A stretch of 64,000 nt of DNA from Escherichia phage vB_EcoM_WFbE185, in the sequence record MK373778.1, one strand, 5' to 3'. The translations under genes were made by a program, and so were the position numbers. Positions 2,382 through 59,200 of the stretch are shown here, in pieces. The stretch's first letter is position 1. Every line of letters starts with the position of its first letter. The notes beneath the pieces were generated by a model. That model was not told the DNA's origin and ran no database searches. It was given only the letters and a program-made list of their open reading frames with translations.

Positions 2382-4707
<2,326 letters not shown>

Positions 4708-40166: not shown

Positions 40167-40338
40167 TTAACCATTCAATTGCCTGGTCGACGTTATCAAA
40201 TATACCACCGTCCAAACGTTCTTCATGCTCATAGTCCAGCACATCAATACCGAACTGTCCATTTACTAAAGGCCAGGCTACAAACAAATATTCTTTATGC
40301 TGTTCGATTGTACGAAAAATCTTTTCGATGTTATTCAT
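40147..40338 (-). CDS. hypothetical protein (cd.x region)
   Basis: 63-aa ORF. Confidence 0.45.
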   Translation of the reverse strand: MNNIEKIFRTIEQHKEYLFVAWPLVNGQFGIDVLDYEHEERLDGGIFDNVDQAIEWLNENYVR

Positions 40339-41053
40339 AAGTTTTCCATTTTCTACCTAGTTGCCAGTCCGGGCTGTTTAATCTAGGATCGTTTATATCG
40401 GTGGTAGAAGACTTTTTACCTGAAATATGGATTAACCATTTTCTAGATTTAGCTGCTTTAGAATAATTTTCTTTAGCCTTATCACTTCTAACCTTGCCTT
40501 TATTGGATTTGGATATTTTATTACCCCATTCAATAATAGACTCTTCACTCATAAAATCTTTAACATTCTTACCATACATAGGATTATTTTCGCCTTTAAA
40601 CGTATTACCATTTTTAAGACGGGTTTCTTTAGATTTAATCCCATGACCTGGCAATTTCTTACCTTTAATCCAAGGAACCACACCATTATTAAATCGTTCT
40701 TTTTGCGATTTAGAAATTTTTGCAGATGTTTCTGGGCTTGAATTAACATTAATACGATTTTCATTAATATAATCCCAGCCTCCTTCTCCGCCAGGTTTCA
40801 AATTGTAATTAGTATCCAGTTTTATAAATTCTTTAGTTACTAATTTGGCTTCTAAATCATATGCTTCTTGTTTAGTTTCAAATATTTTTATGATTTCTTT
40901 ATTAAAAGAATCTTTACCATATTTTGATTCAGCATTTTTAAAAGCTGTACCGGAACCTAAATAAGAATCATTTTCTTTTAAGGTCTTATGAACCCCTATA
41001 TAAATTTTGTTGTTAACCAAACATGTGGTTTTATACACAGTGTATTTTTCCAT
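40331..41053 (-). CDS. GIY-YIG homing endonuclease (Seg-like, freestanding)
   Basis: 240 aa from ATG at 41053 (SD GAGGTGA 5 nt upstream); N-terminal GIY-YIG module VYKTTCLVNNKIYIGVHKT...YLGSG and C-terminal NUMOD-like basic repeats. Confidence 0.8.
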   Translation of the reverse strand: MEKYTVYKTTCLVNNKIYIGVHKTLKENDSYLGSGTAFKNAESKYGKDSFNKEIIKIFETKQEAYDLEAKLVTKEFIKLDTNYNLKPGGEGGWDYINENRINVNSSPETSAKISKSQKERFNNGVVPWIKGKKLPGHGIKSKETRLKNGNTFKGENNPMYGKNVKDFMSEESIIEWGNKISKSNKGKVRSDKAKENYSKAAKSRKWLIHISGKKSSTTDINDPRLNSPDWQLGRKWKTYE

Positions 41054-41071
41054 TAGAATCACCTCTATAGA

Positions 41072-41079
41072 TATTTATA
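41072..41079 (-). promoter_or_regulatory. late promoter (TATAAATA) for the homing endonuclease gene
   Basis: Reverse-complement TATAAATA 18 nt upstream of the ATG at 41053. Confidence 0.5.
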
Positions 41080-41100: not shown

Positions 41101-42187
<1,087 letters not shown>

Positions 42188-51822: not shown

Positions 51823-52215
51823 CTACTTTTTAAAAGTTTTTTGCAAAAGTTTGATGATTTCGTCGACGTTAGTTTCATCCACGATACAATGGATTTTTGT
51901 TACACCTAAAGTTATACCTTCGTTAGTAGGTTGAGGCTTTACTAAATCTACCTCAGTAAAGTATTTGAACTCGTCAGGATAAATCTCAAAATAAGTTTCA
52001 ATTTCACCACCGGCAGAACATACAGTACCATCTTCCATAGTTACACTTACTACGTTTGACGTATCGCTATCATAATCAGGTTCCATTCCGTTTACAACAA
52101 AACTAGGCCCGTGGAGTTCAATCAATTTTAACATCTTAGCGTTATTATGTGGTGCTTCTTGAACAAAGTCGTCTTTAAATAAAGGGTTAATGATATAAGA
52201 TTTTCCGATTTCCAT
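51823..52215 (-). CDS. hypothetical protein (frd.3 position)
   Basis: 130 aa; SD GAGGAA; early promoter upstream. Confidence 0.5.
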   Translation of the reverse strand: MEIGKSYIINPLFKDDFVQEAPHNNAKMLKLIELHGPSFVVNGMEPDYDSDTSNVVSVTMEDGTVCSAGGEIETYFEIYPDEFKYFTEVDLVKPQPTNEGITLGVTKIHCIVDETNVDEIIKLLQKTFKK

Positions 52216-52244
52216 TTTGATTTCCTCATGTTGTTGATAGGTCT

Positions 52245-52273
52245 ATACTAACACATCCAGGGAAGAAGTAAAC
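52245..52273 (-). promoter_or_regulatory. T4-type early promoter
   Basis: Minus strand GTTTAC-N17-TGTGTTAGTATAGAC upstream of the ORF at 51823-52215. Confidence 0.55.
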
Positions 52274-52304
52274 AACTTTTTCGGCAATTTACAGATACTC
52301 AAAA

Positions 52305-52322
52305 GGGAGACCGAAGTCTCCC
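52305..52322 (-). terminator. intrinsic terminator after gene 32
   Basis: Minus strand GGGAGAC-UUCG-GUCUCCC followed by UUUUGAG. Confidence 0.7.
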
Positions 52323-52328
52323 AATTTA

Positions 52329-53228
52329 TTATAGACCAGCTAACAGGTCATCGAGGTCGCCATCGTCAGAAGACGAGGAACTCATGAAGTCATCTTCAGT
52401 TTTTGCAGAACTAAAGGCTTCCATGTCTTTATCAAAATCGTCGAGGTCAGAAGCAACTTTATCTGCAACAGAAGCTGCGGCAGCTGCTGCACCACCAAGA
52501 GCGGCAGTACCAAGAACTTGATTAAATTTAGTATTCAATTCTTCAAACGATTTGAACTTATCTTTAGAAGTCATTTCAGAAAGGTCAACCATTTGTTCGA
52601 ACAATTCTTTCTGGAAAGATTCATCATCAATGTTTGGAATCGCAGATTGATTCAGGAATTTAGATTCGTCGTAGTTACTGAAACCAGAAACCTGTTTAAC
52701 TTTCAGCACAAAGTTAGCACCTTCCCACGGGCAAGTTACATCAACAGGAGTTTCACCCATTTCAGTATCGACTGCAATCATTGCATTGATTTTGTCCCAA
52801 ATCTTTTTACCGAAACGATATTTGAATACTTTACCTTCATTATCTGGAGCTTGTGGGTCTTTAACAACCAGAATATTAGCCCAATAAGAAGTTTTACGTT
52901 TCAGTTGAGAATATTCAGTTTTGTTGGTATTGTACAGGTCATTTTTACTAATGTACTGACATACAGGACAAGAGTCATAATCGCCGTGTGTAGATGAACA
53001 GGTTTCAATATACCATTTACCATTTTTCTTGAACCCATGGTTAACAAGAATTGTAAACGGAAGTGCGTCATCTGTTTTTGCCGGCAGGAAACGAATTACC
53101 GCTTGACCATTACCGGATGCATCGAGTTTCAGCTTCCATTCACCTTTATCTTCTGAAGAGAAACCTTTGTTACCATTCAGTTTAGCCATCTGAGCTGCGA
53201 GGTCTGCGGTACTTTTACGTTTAAACAT
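52329..53228 (-). CDS. 32: single-stranded DNA-binding protein gp32
   Basis: 299 aa; zinc site [15 protein letters not shown] and acidic C-terminus; near-identical to recalled T4 gp32. Confidence 0.95.
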
Positions 53229-53300
53229 TTTATTTGCCTTTATTTAGATTATTAATTAAATTTTACAGTTGGTTGCTACGACACTTATACCTCGTAGCTG
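53229..53300 (-). promoter_or_regulatory. gene 32 mRNA leader: hairpin plus A/U-rich region (autoregulatory translational operator)
   Basis: 7-bp stem GCUACGA / UCGUAGC at 53275-53298, then an unstructured A/U-rich stretch up to the AAAGG SD; architecture matches the known T4 gene 32 operator. Confidence 0.5.
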
Positions 53301-53308
53301 GTATGATT

Positions 53309-53316
53309 TATTTATA
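53309..53316 (-). promoter_or_regulatory. late promoter (TATAAATA) for gene 32
   Basis: Reverse-complement TATAAATA upstream of the gene 32 leader. Confidence 0.5.
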
Positions 53317-53345
53317 AAGTAATTTTAACACACAAGAAATAAAGC

Positions 53346-53999
53346 TTAATACTTACATGATTTGATTGTTTCTATGAACAATTTCTTAGCAGCATTTCTA
53401 TCGATTTGAAGTATTTTTCGATATGCCTTTAATTTGGTAGAATAATTTTGCCAGACTAAATTGTCAGTGAGTTCGTCGTGCTTATCTATAATATTCAAAA
53501 ACGAGTCTAACAATAAGAAAGTCTCAAATGAAATTATATTGCTTTGTAGCAATTTGAATATGTAGCTCGACTGAACGTTGTTATTATAATCAAATATCTC
53601 TTGAAGCGCACTAACTTCAACTTTCTTACTGAAATAGTAGATGTTACGTACGTCTTCAGCAAACGTCTCTTTAGCTTGTTTGAGACGTCCAATATATTCC
53701 CTATAGAAAACTAATGCATCAGCGTCTGATATCTCACCAATCCATGCGTCTTGGTTAGCAACTAAGTTGCTTATGAATATCAAGGTGAGTTCCTTCAATT
53801 TATATTTCTCTGCTAGTTTTTCAAAGAAATATTTATCTCGGCGTTTTTGATACGCATTATCCGAAACACGCATGCACCAGTTATATTTGATTACGTCATA
53901 CCGACCACCAAAGTGGTTTTTGCACATCAAGTATAGTTTATATACTGATTTACCGTTAATATAACGTTCTCCGTCAGGAGGCATGCGTATTTTAATCAT
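53346..53999 (-). CDS. 59: helicase loader gp59
   Basis: 217 aa; MIKIRMPPDGERYINGKSVYKLYLM... matches recalled T4 gp59. Confidence 0.95.
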   Translation of the reverse strand: MIKIRMPPDGERYINGKSVYKLYLMCKNHFGGRYDVIKYNWCMRVSDNAYQKRRDKYFFEKLAEKYKLKELTLIFISNLVANQDAWIGEISDADALVFYREYIGRLKQAKETFAEDVRNIYYFSKKVEVSALQEIFDYNNNVQSSYIFKLLQSNIISFETFLLLDSFLNIIDKHDELTDNLVWQNYSTKLKAYRKILQIDRNAAKKLFIETIKSCKY

Positions 54000-54675
54000 A
54001 GTTCCATCCAGGCCATTTTGAAGATTTAAGTCTATACGTAACTAGAGATGCAGAAATATTAAAAACATCTGAAACTTCTGTGCATGATGAGTATTTTATA
54101 CCATCAATAATTATAGGTTTTTGTTTTTTAATAGTTCTTTCTTTAGAATGCGGCTTTGAATTTGCTATTCTAAGAGCTTCTTTGGTTGAATCAGGCATCG
54201 GCTTATTCGTTTTTCGCCCTTTTCGGACTTTACTCAAAGCTAATTTATGAGCTTCAGATAGTTTCCTACCCTTATTAGGGGATGGTATTTTTCTTTCTAA
54301 TCTGGTTTTAGATACTTTAGCCTTAGTCTCTTCAGATCTAGGTTTCCCTATTTTAGAAAGTGAAATAGCCCTTTTAGCTTCATCACTTTGTTTTTTACCA
54401 GGGCCACCTTTACCACCTGGAACCAGGTTATAAGTATCAGTTCGCAAAACAAAATCTTCATTAACCAATTCTGCTTCTTTTTTATAGGCGTCCTTGGCAT
54501 TATCATATTCATAAAGAACTTCAGTATAAAAATTTTTTAGCCCGTATTTAGCTTTGGCCGCTAATATAGCGCGACCAGACCCAATATACCAATCTTTCTC
54601 TTTATGTTTTTTGTGTACACCTATATAAATTTTACCATTTATTTTATTGGTAGTTTTATACACAACGTATTTCAT
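53992..54675 (-). CDS. GIY-YIG homing endonuclease (Seg-like, freestanding)
   Basis: 227 aa; VYKTTNKINGKIYIGVHKK...WYIGSG GIY-YIG module plus NUMOD-like basic repeats; start overlaps gp33 stop (ATGA), stop overlaps gp59 start. Confidence 0.8.
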   Translation of the reverse strand: MKYVVYKTTNKINGKIYIGVHKKHKEKDWYIGSGRAILAAKAKYGLKNFYTEVLYEYDNAKDAYKKEAELVNEDFVLRTDTYNLVPGGKGGPGKKQSDEAKRAISLSKIGKPRSEETKAKVSKTRLERKIPSPNKGRKLSEAHKLALSKVRKGRKTNKPMPDSTKEALRIANSKPHSKERTIKKQKPIIIDGIKYSSCTEVSDVFNISASLVTYRLKSSKWPGWNYD

Positions 54676-55010
54676 AATAAGAAATCTAACGTATTAGTTT
54701 TTTCACCACGAGCAACTGACGGGCGAAGCATGTTTTCGTCAATTGCTTCGCTTGTAATTTTTTCAACAATTCCTGTAGGAATAAATTTAGCAAATTGTGT
54801 TTCTGGAATAGAATTTTCTTCCAAGAAAGCAGTTGTTGCTTCTAAATAAGACATACCAAATTGTTCAACCATGGATTCGATAATGAATCCGTTTTCTTGT
54901 CGGTCAAGCAATTTAGCGATATCATCTTTATCGTGTTTTACTGCTAATTCTTGTTCAGATAAACCGGCCTCATCAACCGGTTTAATATCACTTAGTGAAA
55001 ACTGTGTCAT
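54672..55010 (-). CDS. 33: late transcription accessory protein gp33
   Basis: 112 aa; matches recalled T4 gp33. Confidence 0.9.
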   Translation of the reverse strand: MTQFSLSDIKPVDEAGLSEQELAVKHDKDDIAKLLDRQENGFIIESMVEQFGMSYLEATTAFLEENSIPETQFAKFIPTGIVEKITSEAIDENMLRPSVARGEKTNTLDFLL

Positions 55011-55257
55011 AAAGCTCGACTACCTCTTCGTTTTCAGCTTCAAATTGATCACGAGCGTCTTTATGATAAAGAGCTAACAAACGATTAAACATTTTTCCAT
55101 CGACACCAAGCTCTTCTTTAGCACGAGTACGAATGTCTTTAATCAGTTCATTATATCCAGAAATTTTAAGTTTGTTATCGGAAGCTTCCTTGACTAGTTT
55201 AGCCAGTTCTTCACCGTGCACATCTTGATTAAATTCAACCGCTTCTTTCTTAGCCAT
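54988..55257 (-). CDS. dsbA: double-stranded DNA-binding protein DsbA
   Basis: 89 aa from ATG at 55257 (SD GAGGT 4 nt upstream); the longer track ORF lacks an SD. Confidence 0.7.
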   Translation of the reverse strand: MAKKEAVEFNQDVHGEELAKLVKEASDNKLKISGYNELIKDIRTRAKEELGVDGKMFNRLLALYHKDARDQFEAENEEVVELYDTVFTK

Positions 55258-55264
55258 GTTTACC

Positions 55265-56182
55265 TCAGAATTCATTAATTACACTTGTTAATTTAGAAAG
55301 ACCAGATTTTACAAAATATGAATAAATCTTGCCTTTAGGTTGTTGTTTATATGAGTTATAATACTCTATAATGGTTGAAGCAATATTATCAGGGATATAA
55401 TCAAAATCAATGAGAACCAAATTTTCTTGATACCGTTTATATTCTTCTGCACTTAATAATACTTCAGCTTGAGAACGGTCATTGGCAATTGCTTCAATAA
55501 TCGATGTTTTCATGCTCGGAGTTCGTTCACCATCAACTCTGGTAAACCAGAAGTCGCCACGAACTCGAACAGATGCAACACCATCCTTACGGTCACCTTT
55601 AAGAATTTTAGTCATGCAATCAATTTCAGCAGAACCATTCTTAATTTTAACCCATTTTTTCTGTGGTGGCGACCACTGTTTAACGTTAGGATATTTGTGT
55701 AATTGTGTAAAGTCACCATCTGATGCAACAATACATACTTTATGTCCAGCTAATGACAAATATTTAGTTAATACACCGATATGGTCATCCGCTTCATACT
55801 TGTCAATATCCATTACAACGTATGGCATGTATTTCTTAATCTCATCAACAACTTGATGGAGTGCAGTAAAATATCCTTCCCAATCCCACTTTGAAGCTTC
55901 ACGATCGGTTTTACGATTTTTCTTGTAATAGTAAGCAAAGTCACGACGCCAATAACCCGAAGTAGCATTATCCATACACAATACAAATTTTGTATAGCCT
56001 TGCTTACGGAACATCACTACGTTTTTACGAATTGAATTCAAGATTACATGGCGAACCATCGGAACGGTAATTTTATCGCCGTCTTCAAAGTTGTTTAATG
56101 CGGCTGCCAATGCAATGTTACTAAAGTCAGCAAGTGCAATACCTTCTTTGTAATCTTCATCCAACATCATTTCTAGATCCAT
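55265..56182 (-). CDS. rnh: RNase H (5'-3' exonuclease, FEN family)
   Basis: 305 aa; synteny before gene 34; early promoter upstream. Confidence 0.9.
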   Translation of the reverse strand: MDLEMMLDEDYKEGIALADFSNIALAAALNNFEDGDKITVPMVRHVILNSIRKNVVMFRKQGYTKFVLCMDNATSGYWRRDFAYYYKKNRKTDREASKWDWEGYFTALHQVVDEIKKYMPYVVMDIDKYEADDHIGVLTKYLSLAGHKVCIVASDGDFTQLHKYPNVKQWSPPQKKWVKIKNGSAEIDCMTKILKGDRKDGVASVRVRGDFWFTRVDGERTPSMKTSIIEAIANDRSQAEVLLSAEEYKRYQENLVLIDFDYIPDNIASTIIEYYNSYKQQPKGKIYSYFVKSGLSKLTSVINEF

Positions 56183-56214
56183 ATGAACCTCTTGTTCAGT
56201 TAGTCAACTTGTCT

Positions 56215-56244
56215 ATAGTAACACACTCATTTGAAAGCGTAAAC
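56215..56244 (-). promoter_or_regulatory. T4-type early promoter for rnh
   Basis: Minus strand GTTTAC-N18-TGTGTTACTATAGAC; back-to-back with the gene 34 late promoter. Confidence 0.55.
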
Positions 56245-56247
56245 TGG

Positions 56248-56255
56248 TATAAATA
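56248..56255 (+). promoter_or_regulatory. late promoter (TATAAATA) for gene 34
   Basis: Exact TATAAATA 30 nt upstream of the ATG. Confidence 0.6.
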
Positions 56256-56285
56256 AGTATTATTGAAACAATAAAGGAAAAACGA

Positions 56286-59200
56286 ATGGCCGACATCAAA
56301 CGTAAGTTCAGAGCCGAAGACGGTCTGGACGCCGGTGGCGACAAGATTGTTAACGTAGCATTAGCCGACCGTACAGTAGGTACTGATGGCGTAAACGTTG
56401 ACTTCCTGGTACAAGAAAACACCGTTCAAGTATATGATTCTACGCGTGGATATAACAAAGGATTTGTTGTTCTTTATGACAACCGTTTATATCAAGCAAT
56501 AAATGATATCGTGTCTCCTTCCGGGGCATTTAACCTTTTACAATGGCGTGCAGTTCGTACTGATGCACAATGGATAACTGTCGCTTCTGGGACTTATCAA
56601 CTTTCTTCAGGTGAATCTATTTCGGTTAACACTGGTGCCGGTAATGATATGGTTTTCACGTTGCCAAATACGCCGGTTGATGGTGATACTGTTGTTTTGG
56701 CTGATATTGGTGGAAGAACCGGGACAGTTAAAGTACAGATTAACGCGTCTGTTCAGAGTATTTTAAACTTTAGAGGTGAACAAGTTCGTACAGTTTTAAT
56801 GACGCGCCCACGTTCACAACTATTGTTTGTGTTTAGTAATCGTTTGTGGCAGATGTATATTACCGATTATGGTAAAGAATCAATCACTGTTACACCTGCG
56901 TCACCATATCAAGCACAAGCAAATGATTTTATCGTTAGTCGTTTTACTAGTGCAGCACCAATCAACATTACACTTCCACGTAATGCTAACAATGGTGATA
57001 TAATCAGCCTAGTCGATTTAGATAGATTAAACCCACTGTATCATACAATTGTTAAAACATTTGATGATACAACGTCTATTGGTGAAGTCGGGACTCATAT
57101 TGCCGAAGGCAGAAATGACTCTGACGCGTTTTTTGTTTTTGATGCTGCAAATAGTTTATGGCGTATATGGGAAGGCGACCAGAAATCGCGTCTTCGTATT
57201 ATCCGTGCGGATTCAAATATTCGTCCAAATGAAGAAGTTCTTATTTTTGGCACAAATAACGCTACAGCCGGAACTATTAATCTTACGCTGCCTTCCGGAA
57301 TTTTGAGTGGTGACACTGTTAAAATTTCAATGAACTACATGCGTAAAGGCCAAACAGTAAAAATTAAAGCTGCCGAAGGTGATACAATTGCTTCTTCTGT
57401 TGCATTGCTTCAGTTCCCTAAACGTTCTGAATATCCACCTGATGCTCAATGGGTCTCTGTTACTGAACTAGAATTCAATGGCACTACTTCATATGTTCCT
57501 GTATTAGAATTAGCGTATATCGAAGACACCGTTGCTGGTACACGTTATTGGGTCGTTCAACAAAACGTCCCTACGGTAGAACGTGTTGATGCTGGAACTG
57601 ATGCTACACGAGCTCGTTTAGGTGTTATTGCTCTTGCTACTCAAGCGCAAGCAAATGTTGATTTAGAGAATACTCCGGCTAAAGAAGTGGCTATTACTCC
57701 TGAAACGTTGGCAAATCGTACAGCAACTGAAGCTCGACGTGGTATCGCTAAAATTGCTACAACAGCACAAGTTAACCAGAATTCCACAGCAACATTTGTG
57801 GACGATACTATTGTTACGCCTAAAAAACTAAATGAGCGTACAGCAACTGAAACTCGTCGCGGTCTTGCTGAAATTGCTACTCAGGCTGAAACCGATGCTG
57901 GTCTTGATGACACAACGATTATTACGCCTAAGAAATTACAGGCCCGTCAGGGTTCTGAAACACTATCTGGTATAGTTAAATATGTATCAACTACTTCTGC
58001 TACTCCTGCTGAAACTCGTGGTACCGCAGGCACTAACGTTTATAATAAAACTGTAAATAATTTAACTATTTCTCCTAAAGCCCTTGACCAATATAAAGCA
58101 ACTTATGCTCAACAAGGTGCAGTAATTTTAGCTGTCGATAGTGAAGTAATTGCTGGTCAATCCCAAGCAGGTTATTCTCATGCTGTAGTAACTCCTGAAA
58201 CACTACATAAGAAAACTTCTACTGATGGACGTATTGGTTTAATTGAAATTGCTACGCAAGCAGAAACTAATGCTGGGACTGATTATACACGTGCAGTAAC
58301 ACCTAAGACGTTAAATGATAGGAAAGCTACGGAAGGATTATCCGGCATAGCCGAACTTGCTACGCAAGTCGAATTTGATACTGGAACTGATGATACTCGT
58401 ATCTCGACTCCACTGAAAATTAAAACTCATTTTGATTCTTCTGACCGTACCAGTGTTAATTCTGATTCCGGACTTATTGAAGAAGGAACCTTGTGGAACC
58501 ATTATACTCTTGATATTTCTAAAGCAAATGAAACACAACGTGGTACACTTCGCGTAGCGACTCAGGCAGAATCTAATGCAGGAACTTTAGATGATGTTCT
58601 TATTACTCCTAAAAAGCTTTTAGGGACTAAGTCCACTGAAACGTCTGAAGGCGTAATTAAGGTTGCTACTCAGGCTGAAACTGTAACAGGAACTTCTGCT
58701 AATACCGCTGTATCGCCTAAGAATTTAAAATGGATTGTCCAGTCTGAACCAACATGGGCTGCTACTACAGCAATTCGTGGATTCGTTAAAACTTCATCCG
58801 GTTCTATTACATTCGTTGGTAATGATACAGTTGGTTCAACACAACCTTTAGAATCATATGAAAAAAATAGCTATGCTATATCTCCATATGAATTAAACCG
58901 TGTACTTGCTAACTATTTGCCATTAAAAGCAAAAGCTGCTGACGCAAATTTATTAGATGGTCTAGATTCATCTCAGTTCATTCGTAGGGACATTGCACAG
59001 ACGGTTAATGGTTCACTAACCTTAACCCAACAAACGAATCTGAGTGCCCCTCTTGTATCAACTAGTACTGCTACGTTTGGTGGTTCAGTTTCGGCAAATA
59101 GTACATTAACTATTTCTAACTCTGGAACAGCTACTCGTCTGATTTTTGAAAAAGGACCTCAAACTGGAACTAACCCAGCACAGACGATGACTATCAGAGT

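Follow-up and report, generated by a model that had tools for sequence, protein, structure and literature searches.

The stretch of DNA analysed here (the window, 64,000 nucleotides (nt) of Escherichia phage vB_EcoM_WFbE185, sequence record MK373778.1) comes from a Mosigvirus that is 98.5% identical to phage PHB12 over the region of interest, and the subject of this study is an open reading frame (ORF) lying between its genes 33 and 59, which most probably is a mobile homing endonuclease gene (HEG). The ORF (53992..54675, minus strand) begins with ATG and encodes 227 amino acids (aa). Its upstream neighbour is gp33, the late-transcription co-activator (54672..55010, minus strand), and its downstream neighbour is gp59, the helicase loader (53346..53999, minus strand); the order of transcription in this part of the window is rnh/dsbA, gp33, the ORF, gp59 and then gp32, as established from the Pfam matches of the neighbours (Trans_coact for gp33, T4_Gp59_N/C for gp59, gp32, Phage_DsbA and RNaseH). 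The 3′ end of gp33 reads ...TTC TTA TTA TGA, and the ATG of the ORF lies inside the ATGA, giving a 4-nt overlap of stop and start (54672..54675, minus strand). The ORF itself ends in ...AAC TAT GAT TAA, and gp59 begins at the ATG of ATGATTAAA, giving an 8-nt overlap, ATGATTAA (53992..53999, minus strand). Both overlaps had been described in a first-pass annotation made from the letters of the window alone, and both are confirmed.

Domain structure and fold of the encoded protein

The ORF product was recognised as a free-standing GIY-YIG (Seg-like) homing endonuclease by the NCBIfam model TIGR01453 of the GIY-YIG subfamily (residues 4-224, 74 bits against a cut-off of 56.05), by PHROG 314, "homing endonuclease" (E = 6.9e-55), and by full-length BLASTP matches to T4 SegD and to I-TevI, while the Pfam model SegE_GIY-YIG taken alone remained below its threshold on this protein (20.1 against a cut-off of 25). 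The nuclease domain occupies aa 1-90 (54406..54675, minus strand), as supported by an alignment of 54 sequences, an AlphaFold model and Foldseek. It is followed by a linker with three to four NUMOD3-like repeats (aa 93-176, 54148..54399, minus strand), seen both as a match to Pfam NUMOD3 (22.5 bits, cut-off 20.4) and as helical repeats in the model, and then by an I-TevI-type helix-turn-helix DNA-binding domain (aa 183-226, 53998..54129, minus strand), identified by Pfam I-TevI_DNA-bd (PF20987, residues 183-226, 42.6 bits) and by its likeness in sequence and fold to PDB entry 1i3j. The GIY-YIG motifs and NUMOD-like repeats noticed in the first-pass annotation are therefore real features of the protein.

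In the AlphaFold model, built from the 54 homologues with a mean pLDDT of 87, strands 2-10 and 16-23 carry the GIY/YIG motifs VVY (Y6) and YIG (Y17, G19). Foldseek with this model retrieved the I-TevI catalytic domain (1mk0/1ln0) with a probability of 0.99-1.0 and a TM score of 0.60-0.65 normalised to the target, and the best fold matches in the PDB were the two halves of I-TevI (1i3j for DNA binding, 1mk0/1ln0 for catalysis), the modular HNH enzyme I-HmuI coming next. Alignment of the 54 homologues did not leave the nuclease without its motifs: Y6, Y17, G19, E67 and N83 are invariant. N83 aligned with I-TevI N90, and E67, which lies one position off E75 in the ungapped BLAST block, is the presumed equivalent of that catalytic glutamate.

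The likeness to I-TevI extends over the whole length of the protein, which is collinear with it at 28% identity, and the recognition helices are nearly identical (SASLVTYRLKSSKW in the window protein, SSGLVTYRVKSDKW in I-TevI). The two differ in that I-TevI is encoded in the td intron of T4 and has a zinc finger, whereas the window gene is free-standing and has NUMOD3 repeats in its place; no cluster of cysteines was found in the linker, the sole cysteine, C198, being in the C-terminal domain. The name of TIGR01453, "group I intron endonuclease", and one record in which the gene is labelled "intron endonuclease, group I" might suggest that the endonuclease is encoded within an intron. However, a scan of 52000-56500 against Rfam returned no family, group I introns included, at E ≤ 1, from which it follows that the gene is free-standing, and the ORF fills the entire insert, with both of its ends overlapping the neighbouring ORFs. 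These two observations practically rule out the intron-encoded reading, which we regard as extremely improbable.

Occurrence of the gene and its fidelity to one junction

Comparison with sister phages in which genes 33 and 59 adjoin directly, by alignment with the empty phage mobillu and of 18 genomes, defined an insert of 676 base pairs (bp) (53996..54671, minus strand), although its exact borders are ambiguous within a TATGA repeat. The empty site reads ...TTCTTATTATGATTAAAATACGC..., and the 100 nt on each side of the insert are identical between the window and mobillu. Among 154 Mosigvirus records matching the junction, 28 carry the gene (HEG+) and 126 have the empty site (HEG-). The gene is similarly distributed in other genera: in Dhakavirus it is present in 4 records and absent from dozens, in Winklervirus it is present in 5 and absent from 5, and the empty sisters in these two genera are 96-98% identical to the carriers. 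A scan of IMG/VR with gp59 gave only 22 loci, with almost no Mosigviruses among them, and served for the other clades, not for population counts.

Nine lineages of the gene were examined, 46-97% identical to the window protein, and all of them lie at the gp33/gp59 junction with the ATGA overlap. The more distant members (46-58% identity) were found, always at this junction, in Dhakavirus phages IME540, AnYang and LQ5, in Serratia phages LC53, CHI14 and CBH8 and Kosakonia phage Kc304 (Winklervirus and relatives), and in several T4-like contigs from metagenomes. With 38% identity, the next homologue adjoins a Mu-type portal gene in an unrelated phage. The lineage is specific to the gp33|gp59 junction and is present in at least five clades of Tevenvirinae. 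Many GenBank records already carry the gene under the label "Seg-like homing endonuclease". Literature searches found no description of an endonuclease at 33/59, of its lineage or of its target.

Relation to the seg genes of T4

The gene order in T4 is 32-segG-59-33-dsbA-rnh, and T4 genes 33 and 59 overlap by ATGA, so T4 has no insert at 33/59, and its segG is found beyond 59, next to 32. The statement in the first-pass annotation that segG lies between 32 and 59 was therefore correct, as was its suggestion of a separate homing event: the gene is neither segG nor a resident of any T4 seg locus, it is not an orthologue of a known T4 seg gene at its usual place, and it forms an insertion lineage of its own. 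Since GIY-YIG genes flank gp59 on either side in T4-like phages, it might still be supposed that segG, or another seg gene, had simply been displaced by one gene. This supposition has almost nothing to recommend it in view of the BLASTP comparisons, in which SegG gave no match to the window protein even at E = 10. Of the T4 proteins, SegD matched best (full-length alignment, 35% identity, E about 1e-38), and its gene is on the opposite strand, between 23 and 24. Moreover, the 33/59 gene and a SegG-like ORF at 59/32 occur together in Dhakavirus IME540 and in contig L052, and for this reason the former cannot be the segG orthologue. The absence of a SegG match and the different locus led to rejection of both segG and the other named T4 seg genes as candidates.

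In the two genomes just mentioned the SegG-like ORFs lie at 3845..4462 (IME540, locus L003) and 3846..4511 (L052), so that gp59 is bracketed by two GIY-YIG genes, an arrangement resembling the "HEG islands" discussed previously (PMC10055350). The 59/32 spacer of the window is 117 nt long and contains no ORF. A match to the T4 late-promoter consensus, TATAAATA, is found in this spacer at 53309..53316 (minus strand); at the corresponding position in T4, promoters of gene 32 are embedded in segG (PMC2988022).

As to the remaining T4 proteins, SegC, SegB, SegE and SegA matched the window protein at 40-44% identity in the nuclease domain only. SegD resembles it more fully, with about 50% identity in the nuclease domain and, after it, NUMOD3-like repeats and a helix-turn-helix at the C-terminus, but segD is antisense between 23 and 24 and has no overlaps with its neighbours, that is, it differs in both locus and orientation, and in its C-terminal domain the window protein is more like I-TevI than like SegD. 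The two are paralogues, not orthologues, although the 33/59 gene is labelled "segD" in some records.

Junction anatomy and expression signals

The arrangement at the two ends of the insert has a simple explanation. In every lineage except Mosigvirus, the endonuclease starts with ATGATTAA(A/G), which is the start sequence of gp59, and in L050 both the endonuclease and gp59 start with ATGATTCGTC, which shows the repeat varying together with the gp59 of its own genome. In the Mosigvirus copy, ATT has been lost on the left-hand side, the product beginning MKY... in place of MIKY..., and only part of the copied gp59 start is kept. The 3′ end of the insert regenerates ATGATTAA for gp59, and the endonuclease stop codon (TAA) is located in this right-hand repeat, at gp59 codons 2-3. 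To judge by these repeats, the insert has captured the coupled start of gp59 and provides a new one.

From the tightness of the overlaps, the first-pass annotation had concluded that the element is long-resident and domesticated. This conclusion is not supported, because an insert flanked by a duplicated gp59 start accounts for tight overlaps and makes domestication needless as an explanation; the same overlaps, derived from this duplication, are present in every lineage. Besides, overlaps and promoter-less cassettes are typical of the free-standing endonuclease genes of T4: T4 mobC shares 4 nt with nrdD and 11 nt with nrdG, and T4 segF shares 11 nt with gene 56. According to a review of T4, seven of its free-standing endonuclease genes are promoter-less cassettes, five of which overlap the upstream ORF, and translational coupling has been proposed as their means of control, as in the UAAUGA arrangement of mobE and nrdA (PMC2988022). 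The 33/59 gene resembles mobC and mobE in its start or stop overlaps with essential neighbours, but the latter are of the HNH family and occupy other loci, and no duplicated downstream start has been described for them.

It also follows from the anatomy of the insertion that the gene has no recognisable promoter or ribosome-binding site of its own. No Shine-Dalgarno sequence is visible upstream of the endonuclease start, and scans for the late promoter (TATAAATA) and for MotA-type patterns found nothing in the ORF or just upstream of it. RNA folding at the endonuclease start and at the gp59 start (z-scores of -0.8 and +0.7, respectively) gave no sign of a start-sequestering hairpin like that of I-TevI. 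Of the translational coupling proposed in the first-pass annotation, the overlap anatomy is compatible with it, and the coupling itself is something that we infer.

A patch of gp59 associated with the gene

Additional evidence for mobility was obtained from the beginning of gp59, where genomes with and without the gene, near-identical elsewhere, differ by a dense patch. The 1,228 nt compared between the HEG+ Winklervirus phages LC53/CHI14 and the HEG- phage Gravdalen contain 23 differences, of which 22 fall at gp59 nt 28-78. Likewise, 18 of the 22 gp59 differences between L053 (HEG+) and L008 (HEG-) fall at nt 15-84, nearly all at third-codon positions, with no difference in the 560 nt upstream, and all 11 fixed differences between Dhakavirus IME540/AnYang (HEG+) and MX01/IME08 (HEG-) lie within nt 15-78. 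On the gp33 side of the insert, nothing comparable was seen in the clades compared. In L048/L053, both the patch and the endonuclease most resemble those of the HEG+ clade L045, whereas the gp59 backbone is 0.7% away from that of HEG- L008. The association of gene and patch became informative only after all records had been searched with a chimeric query; the first test, of single-nucleotide polymorphisms in 18 genomes, revealed no site perfectly tied to the gene (best p 0.023). In a search for a nucleotide motif (such as CNNNG) that would tell every HEG- patch from every HEG+ patch, only nt 69 (C against T) was seen to track the status of the gene in most clades, Mosigvirus being an exception.

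The simplest reading is that the gene was gained by recombination along with the first ~80-90 nt of the donor gp59, because a break ~80-95 bp from the insertion would co-convert everything in between. A one-sided gp59 patch tied to the presence of the gene in four clades fits such co-conversion of flanking markers. Gene-carrying genomes may equally owe their immunity to the patch, as a variant that the nuclease would not cut. For either case, the cut site or the immunity determinants are predicted to lie in gp59 nt ~15-92 (53908..53985, minus strand), and not in gp33; this stretch, the candidate co-conversion tract, encodes the conserved NGKSVYxLYLM sequence. A comparable relation is found with the T4 genes segG and segF, which are free-standing promoter-less GIY-YIG cassettes whose products cut in 32 and 56, respectively (PMC2988022). 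Cutting within the adjacent essential gene, with co-inheritance, is the pattern suggested here for gp59 nt ~15-92. Liu et al. reportedly observed in 2003 that markers between the SegG or SegF cut and the insertion are co-inherited. At the same time, the window protein has no similarity to SegG and weak similarity to SegF, the insertion site is another one, and the presumed distance from cut to insert is below 100 bp, compared to hundreds for SegG and SegF.

Intactness, selection and mosaic flanks

Nine of the ten Mosigvirus copies of the endonuclease are intact, and the tenth, from phage AV116, carries a +1 frameshift. This copy (L030, at the equivalent of ~54367) has an extra G in a GGG run, which shifts the frame at codon ~103, and is otherwise identical to the SA79RD copy; the gene may have been inactivated very recently, or the extra G may be a sequencing error in the homopolymer. 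The dN/dS ratio of the endonuclease is 0.09-0.12 between clades, compared to 0.01-0.04 for gp59 and rnh. The endonuclease clades are up to 5.9% apart and do not follow their flanks, and the HEG occurs with both of the gp32 allele classes, which are ~10.5% apart and 770 nt away.

Could the polymorphism reflect nothing but ongoing loss of an inactive enzyme, the ORF being intact by chance? Such a decaying relic would accord with the frameshift in AV116, with the two private substitutions of the window copy (D60A and K137R) and with the difficulty of assigning the catalytic arginine. It would not accord with a dN/dS of 0.09-0.12 over up to 40 substitutions, nor with the retention of every family-invariant residue and of full length in nine copies out of ten, and since the indel of AV116 is in a homopolymer, it may stem from an error of sequencing. 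We consider decay a rather remote prospect.

A domesticated resident, which no longer homes and is kept for some benefit, such as exclusion of competitors' markers or tuning of gp59 translation by coupling, is somewhat easier to defend, though still unlikely. Purifying selection (dN/dS about 0.1) and the embedding in an essential operon with overlaps at both ends would agree with it, as would the divergence of the endonuclease between genera (56% aa identity), which is near that of gp33 and rnh (55-56%) and compatible with long vertical residence. Against this, the insertion anatomy already accounts for the overlaps; the gene is found in just 28 of the 154 Mosigvirus records and in a minority of Dhakavirus; the flanks of the empty-site sisters are near-identical; the mosaic patch, together with the foreign affinity of the L048/L053 patch and endonuclease, indicates transfer; and the AV116 copy is frameshifted. 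Since the gene is absent from close relatives in Mosigvirus, Dhakavirus and Winklervirus, it is not fixed, and domestication is not supported: a minority presence/absence polymorphism across three genera, with a mosaic flank indicating transfer, is contrary to what had been proposed in the first-pass annotation. Its term "long-resident" is justified only for the long association of the lineage with the site, as copies 46-58% identical to the window protein occupy the same junction.

Two further features of variation around the locus were observed. In gp32 (52329..53228), the Mosigvirus allele classes are up to 13% apart in 150-nt windows, with the peak at 52479..52778, and both classes occur with and without the 33/59 gene, so the gp32 mosaic is independent of it. 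The segment comprising gp33 and dsbA (54672..55275) shows unusually low diversity among 18 Mosigviruses (at most 2.2%, dS 0.03-0.04), in HEG+ and HEG- genomes alike, compared to a dS of 0.09-0.26 in gp59, rnh and the endonuclease.

Interpretation and implications

Taken together, the data are best explained by a free-standing GIY-YIG/Seg homing endonuclease gene belonging to a lineage specific to the gp33|gp59 junction of Tevenvirinae and having its target in gp59, a reading to which we would assign a probability of roughly 80%, sequence comparison being its basis. The gene would be transcribed with rnh-dsbA-33-59, and its product would be translated by termination-reinitiation from gp33, which would keep expression low, with gp59 re-coupled to the endonuclease stop. 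In mixed infection, the nuclease would cut genomes lacking the gene, and repair off a HEG+ genome would copy not only the gene but also the first ~80-90 nt of gp59.

Several points weigh against this reading. Cleavage, its target and the coupling are each a matter of inference. No residue of the protein clearly corresponds to the canonical GIY-YIG arginine: the catalytic R27 of I-TevI falls in an alignment gap, and R35, at the start of the predicted helix 35-44, occupies a column that is not conserved among Seg proteins, where relatives, T4 SegA, SegC and SegD among them, have K, V or T. Markers less than 100 nt from any insertion are tightly linked even without homing. Furthermore, the genus of the window itself, Mosigvirus, is the weakest of the four clades with respect to the patch. 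There, the "B" form of the patch (nt 60, 82, 84, 91 and 92) occurs in none of the 28 HEG+ records and in 88 of the 126 HEG- records, for which Fisher's exact test gives p = 8e-13, a value overstating the independence of the records, among which are related phages and GenBank/RefSeq duplicates. The HEG+ form of the patch is also found in the other 38 HEG- records and is therefore not diagnostic in this genus. Finally, the consensus matches obtained in the promoter scans are near chance, the middle-promoter pattern having 76 matches against 61 expected, so the lack of a match at the ORF carries little weight.

A more specific proposal can be offered tentatively, and we would rate it somewhat below even odds: the cut may be made in the helicase-loader gene at the NGKSVYxLYLM stretch (gp59 nt ~25-92), and every genome acquiring the gene would then receive a largely synonymously recoded copy that is immune to cleavage. 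If true, this would be a natural drive of the type "cut the essential gene, bring a recoded rescue", one that also captures the coupling signal of its target via the duplicated gp59 start codon. The predicted target or immunity patch is 78 nt long, and phages already sequenced offer naturally occurring alleles of three kinds: presumably sensitive, presumably immune, and occupied.

The current understanding of homing is not changed by the 33/59 gene. What the junction illustrates is how an element of this sort can enter between two essential genes that are translationally coupled and leave their coupling intact, and the T4 catalogue of mobile endonuclease genes gains a site-faithful Seg-like lineage at a site that is empty in T4 itself. 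For phage engineering and for the composition of therapy cocktails, it is of note that mixed infections may pass on markers near 59 and 33 unequally.

Other endonuclease genes in the window and in related phages

The 33/59 gene had been called the second of its kind, and another GIY-YIG ORF does exist in the window. This Seg-like ORF (40331..41062, minus strand) encodes 243 aa, is located just downstream of pseT (41101..42000), and its product shares 41% identity with that of the 33/59 gene in the N-terminal 127 residues. In contrast to the 33/59 gene, this ORF is directly preceded by the T4 late-promoter consensus TATAAATA (41072..41079, minus strand). A tblastn search of the window with I-TevI detected no td-intron endonuclease ORF. 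In some Mosigviruses, the thymidylate synthase gene is split and contains an internal endonuclease ORF (td intron), as in AV116 (L030, 308..1045), JM10 (L035, 308..1045) and G2469 (L039, 66..803), and in others td is uninterrupted.

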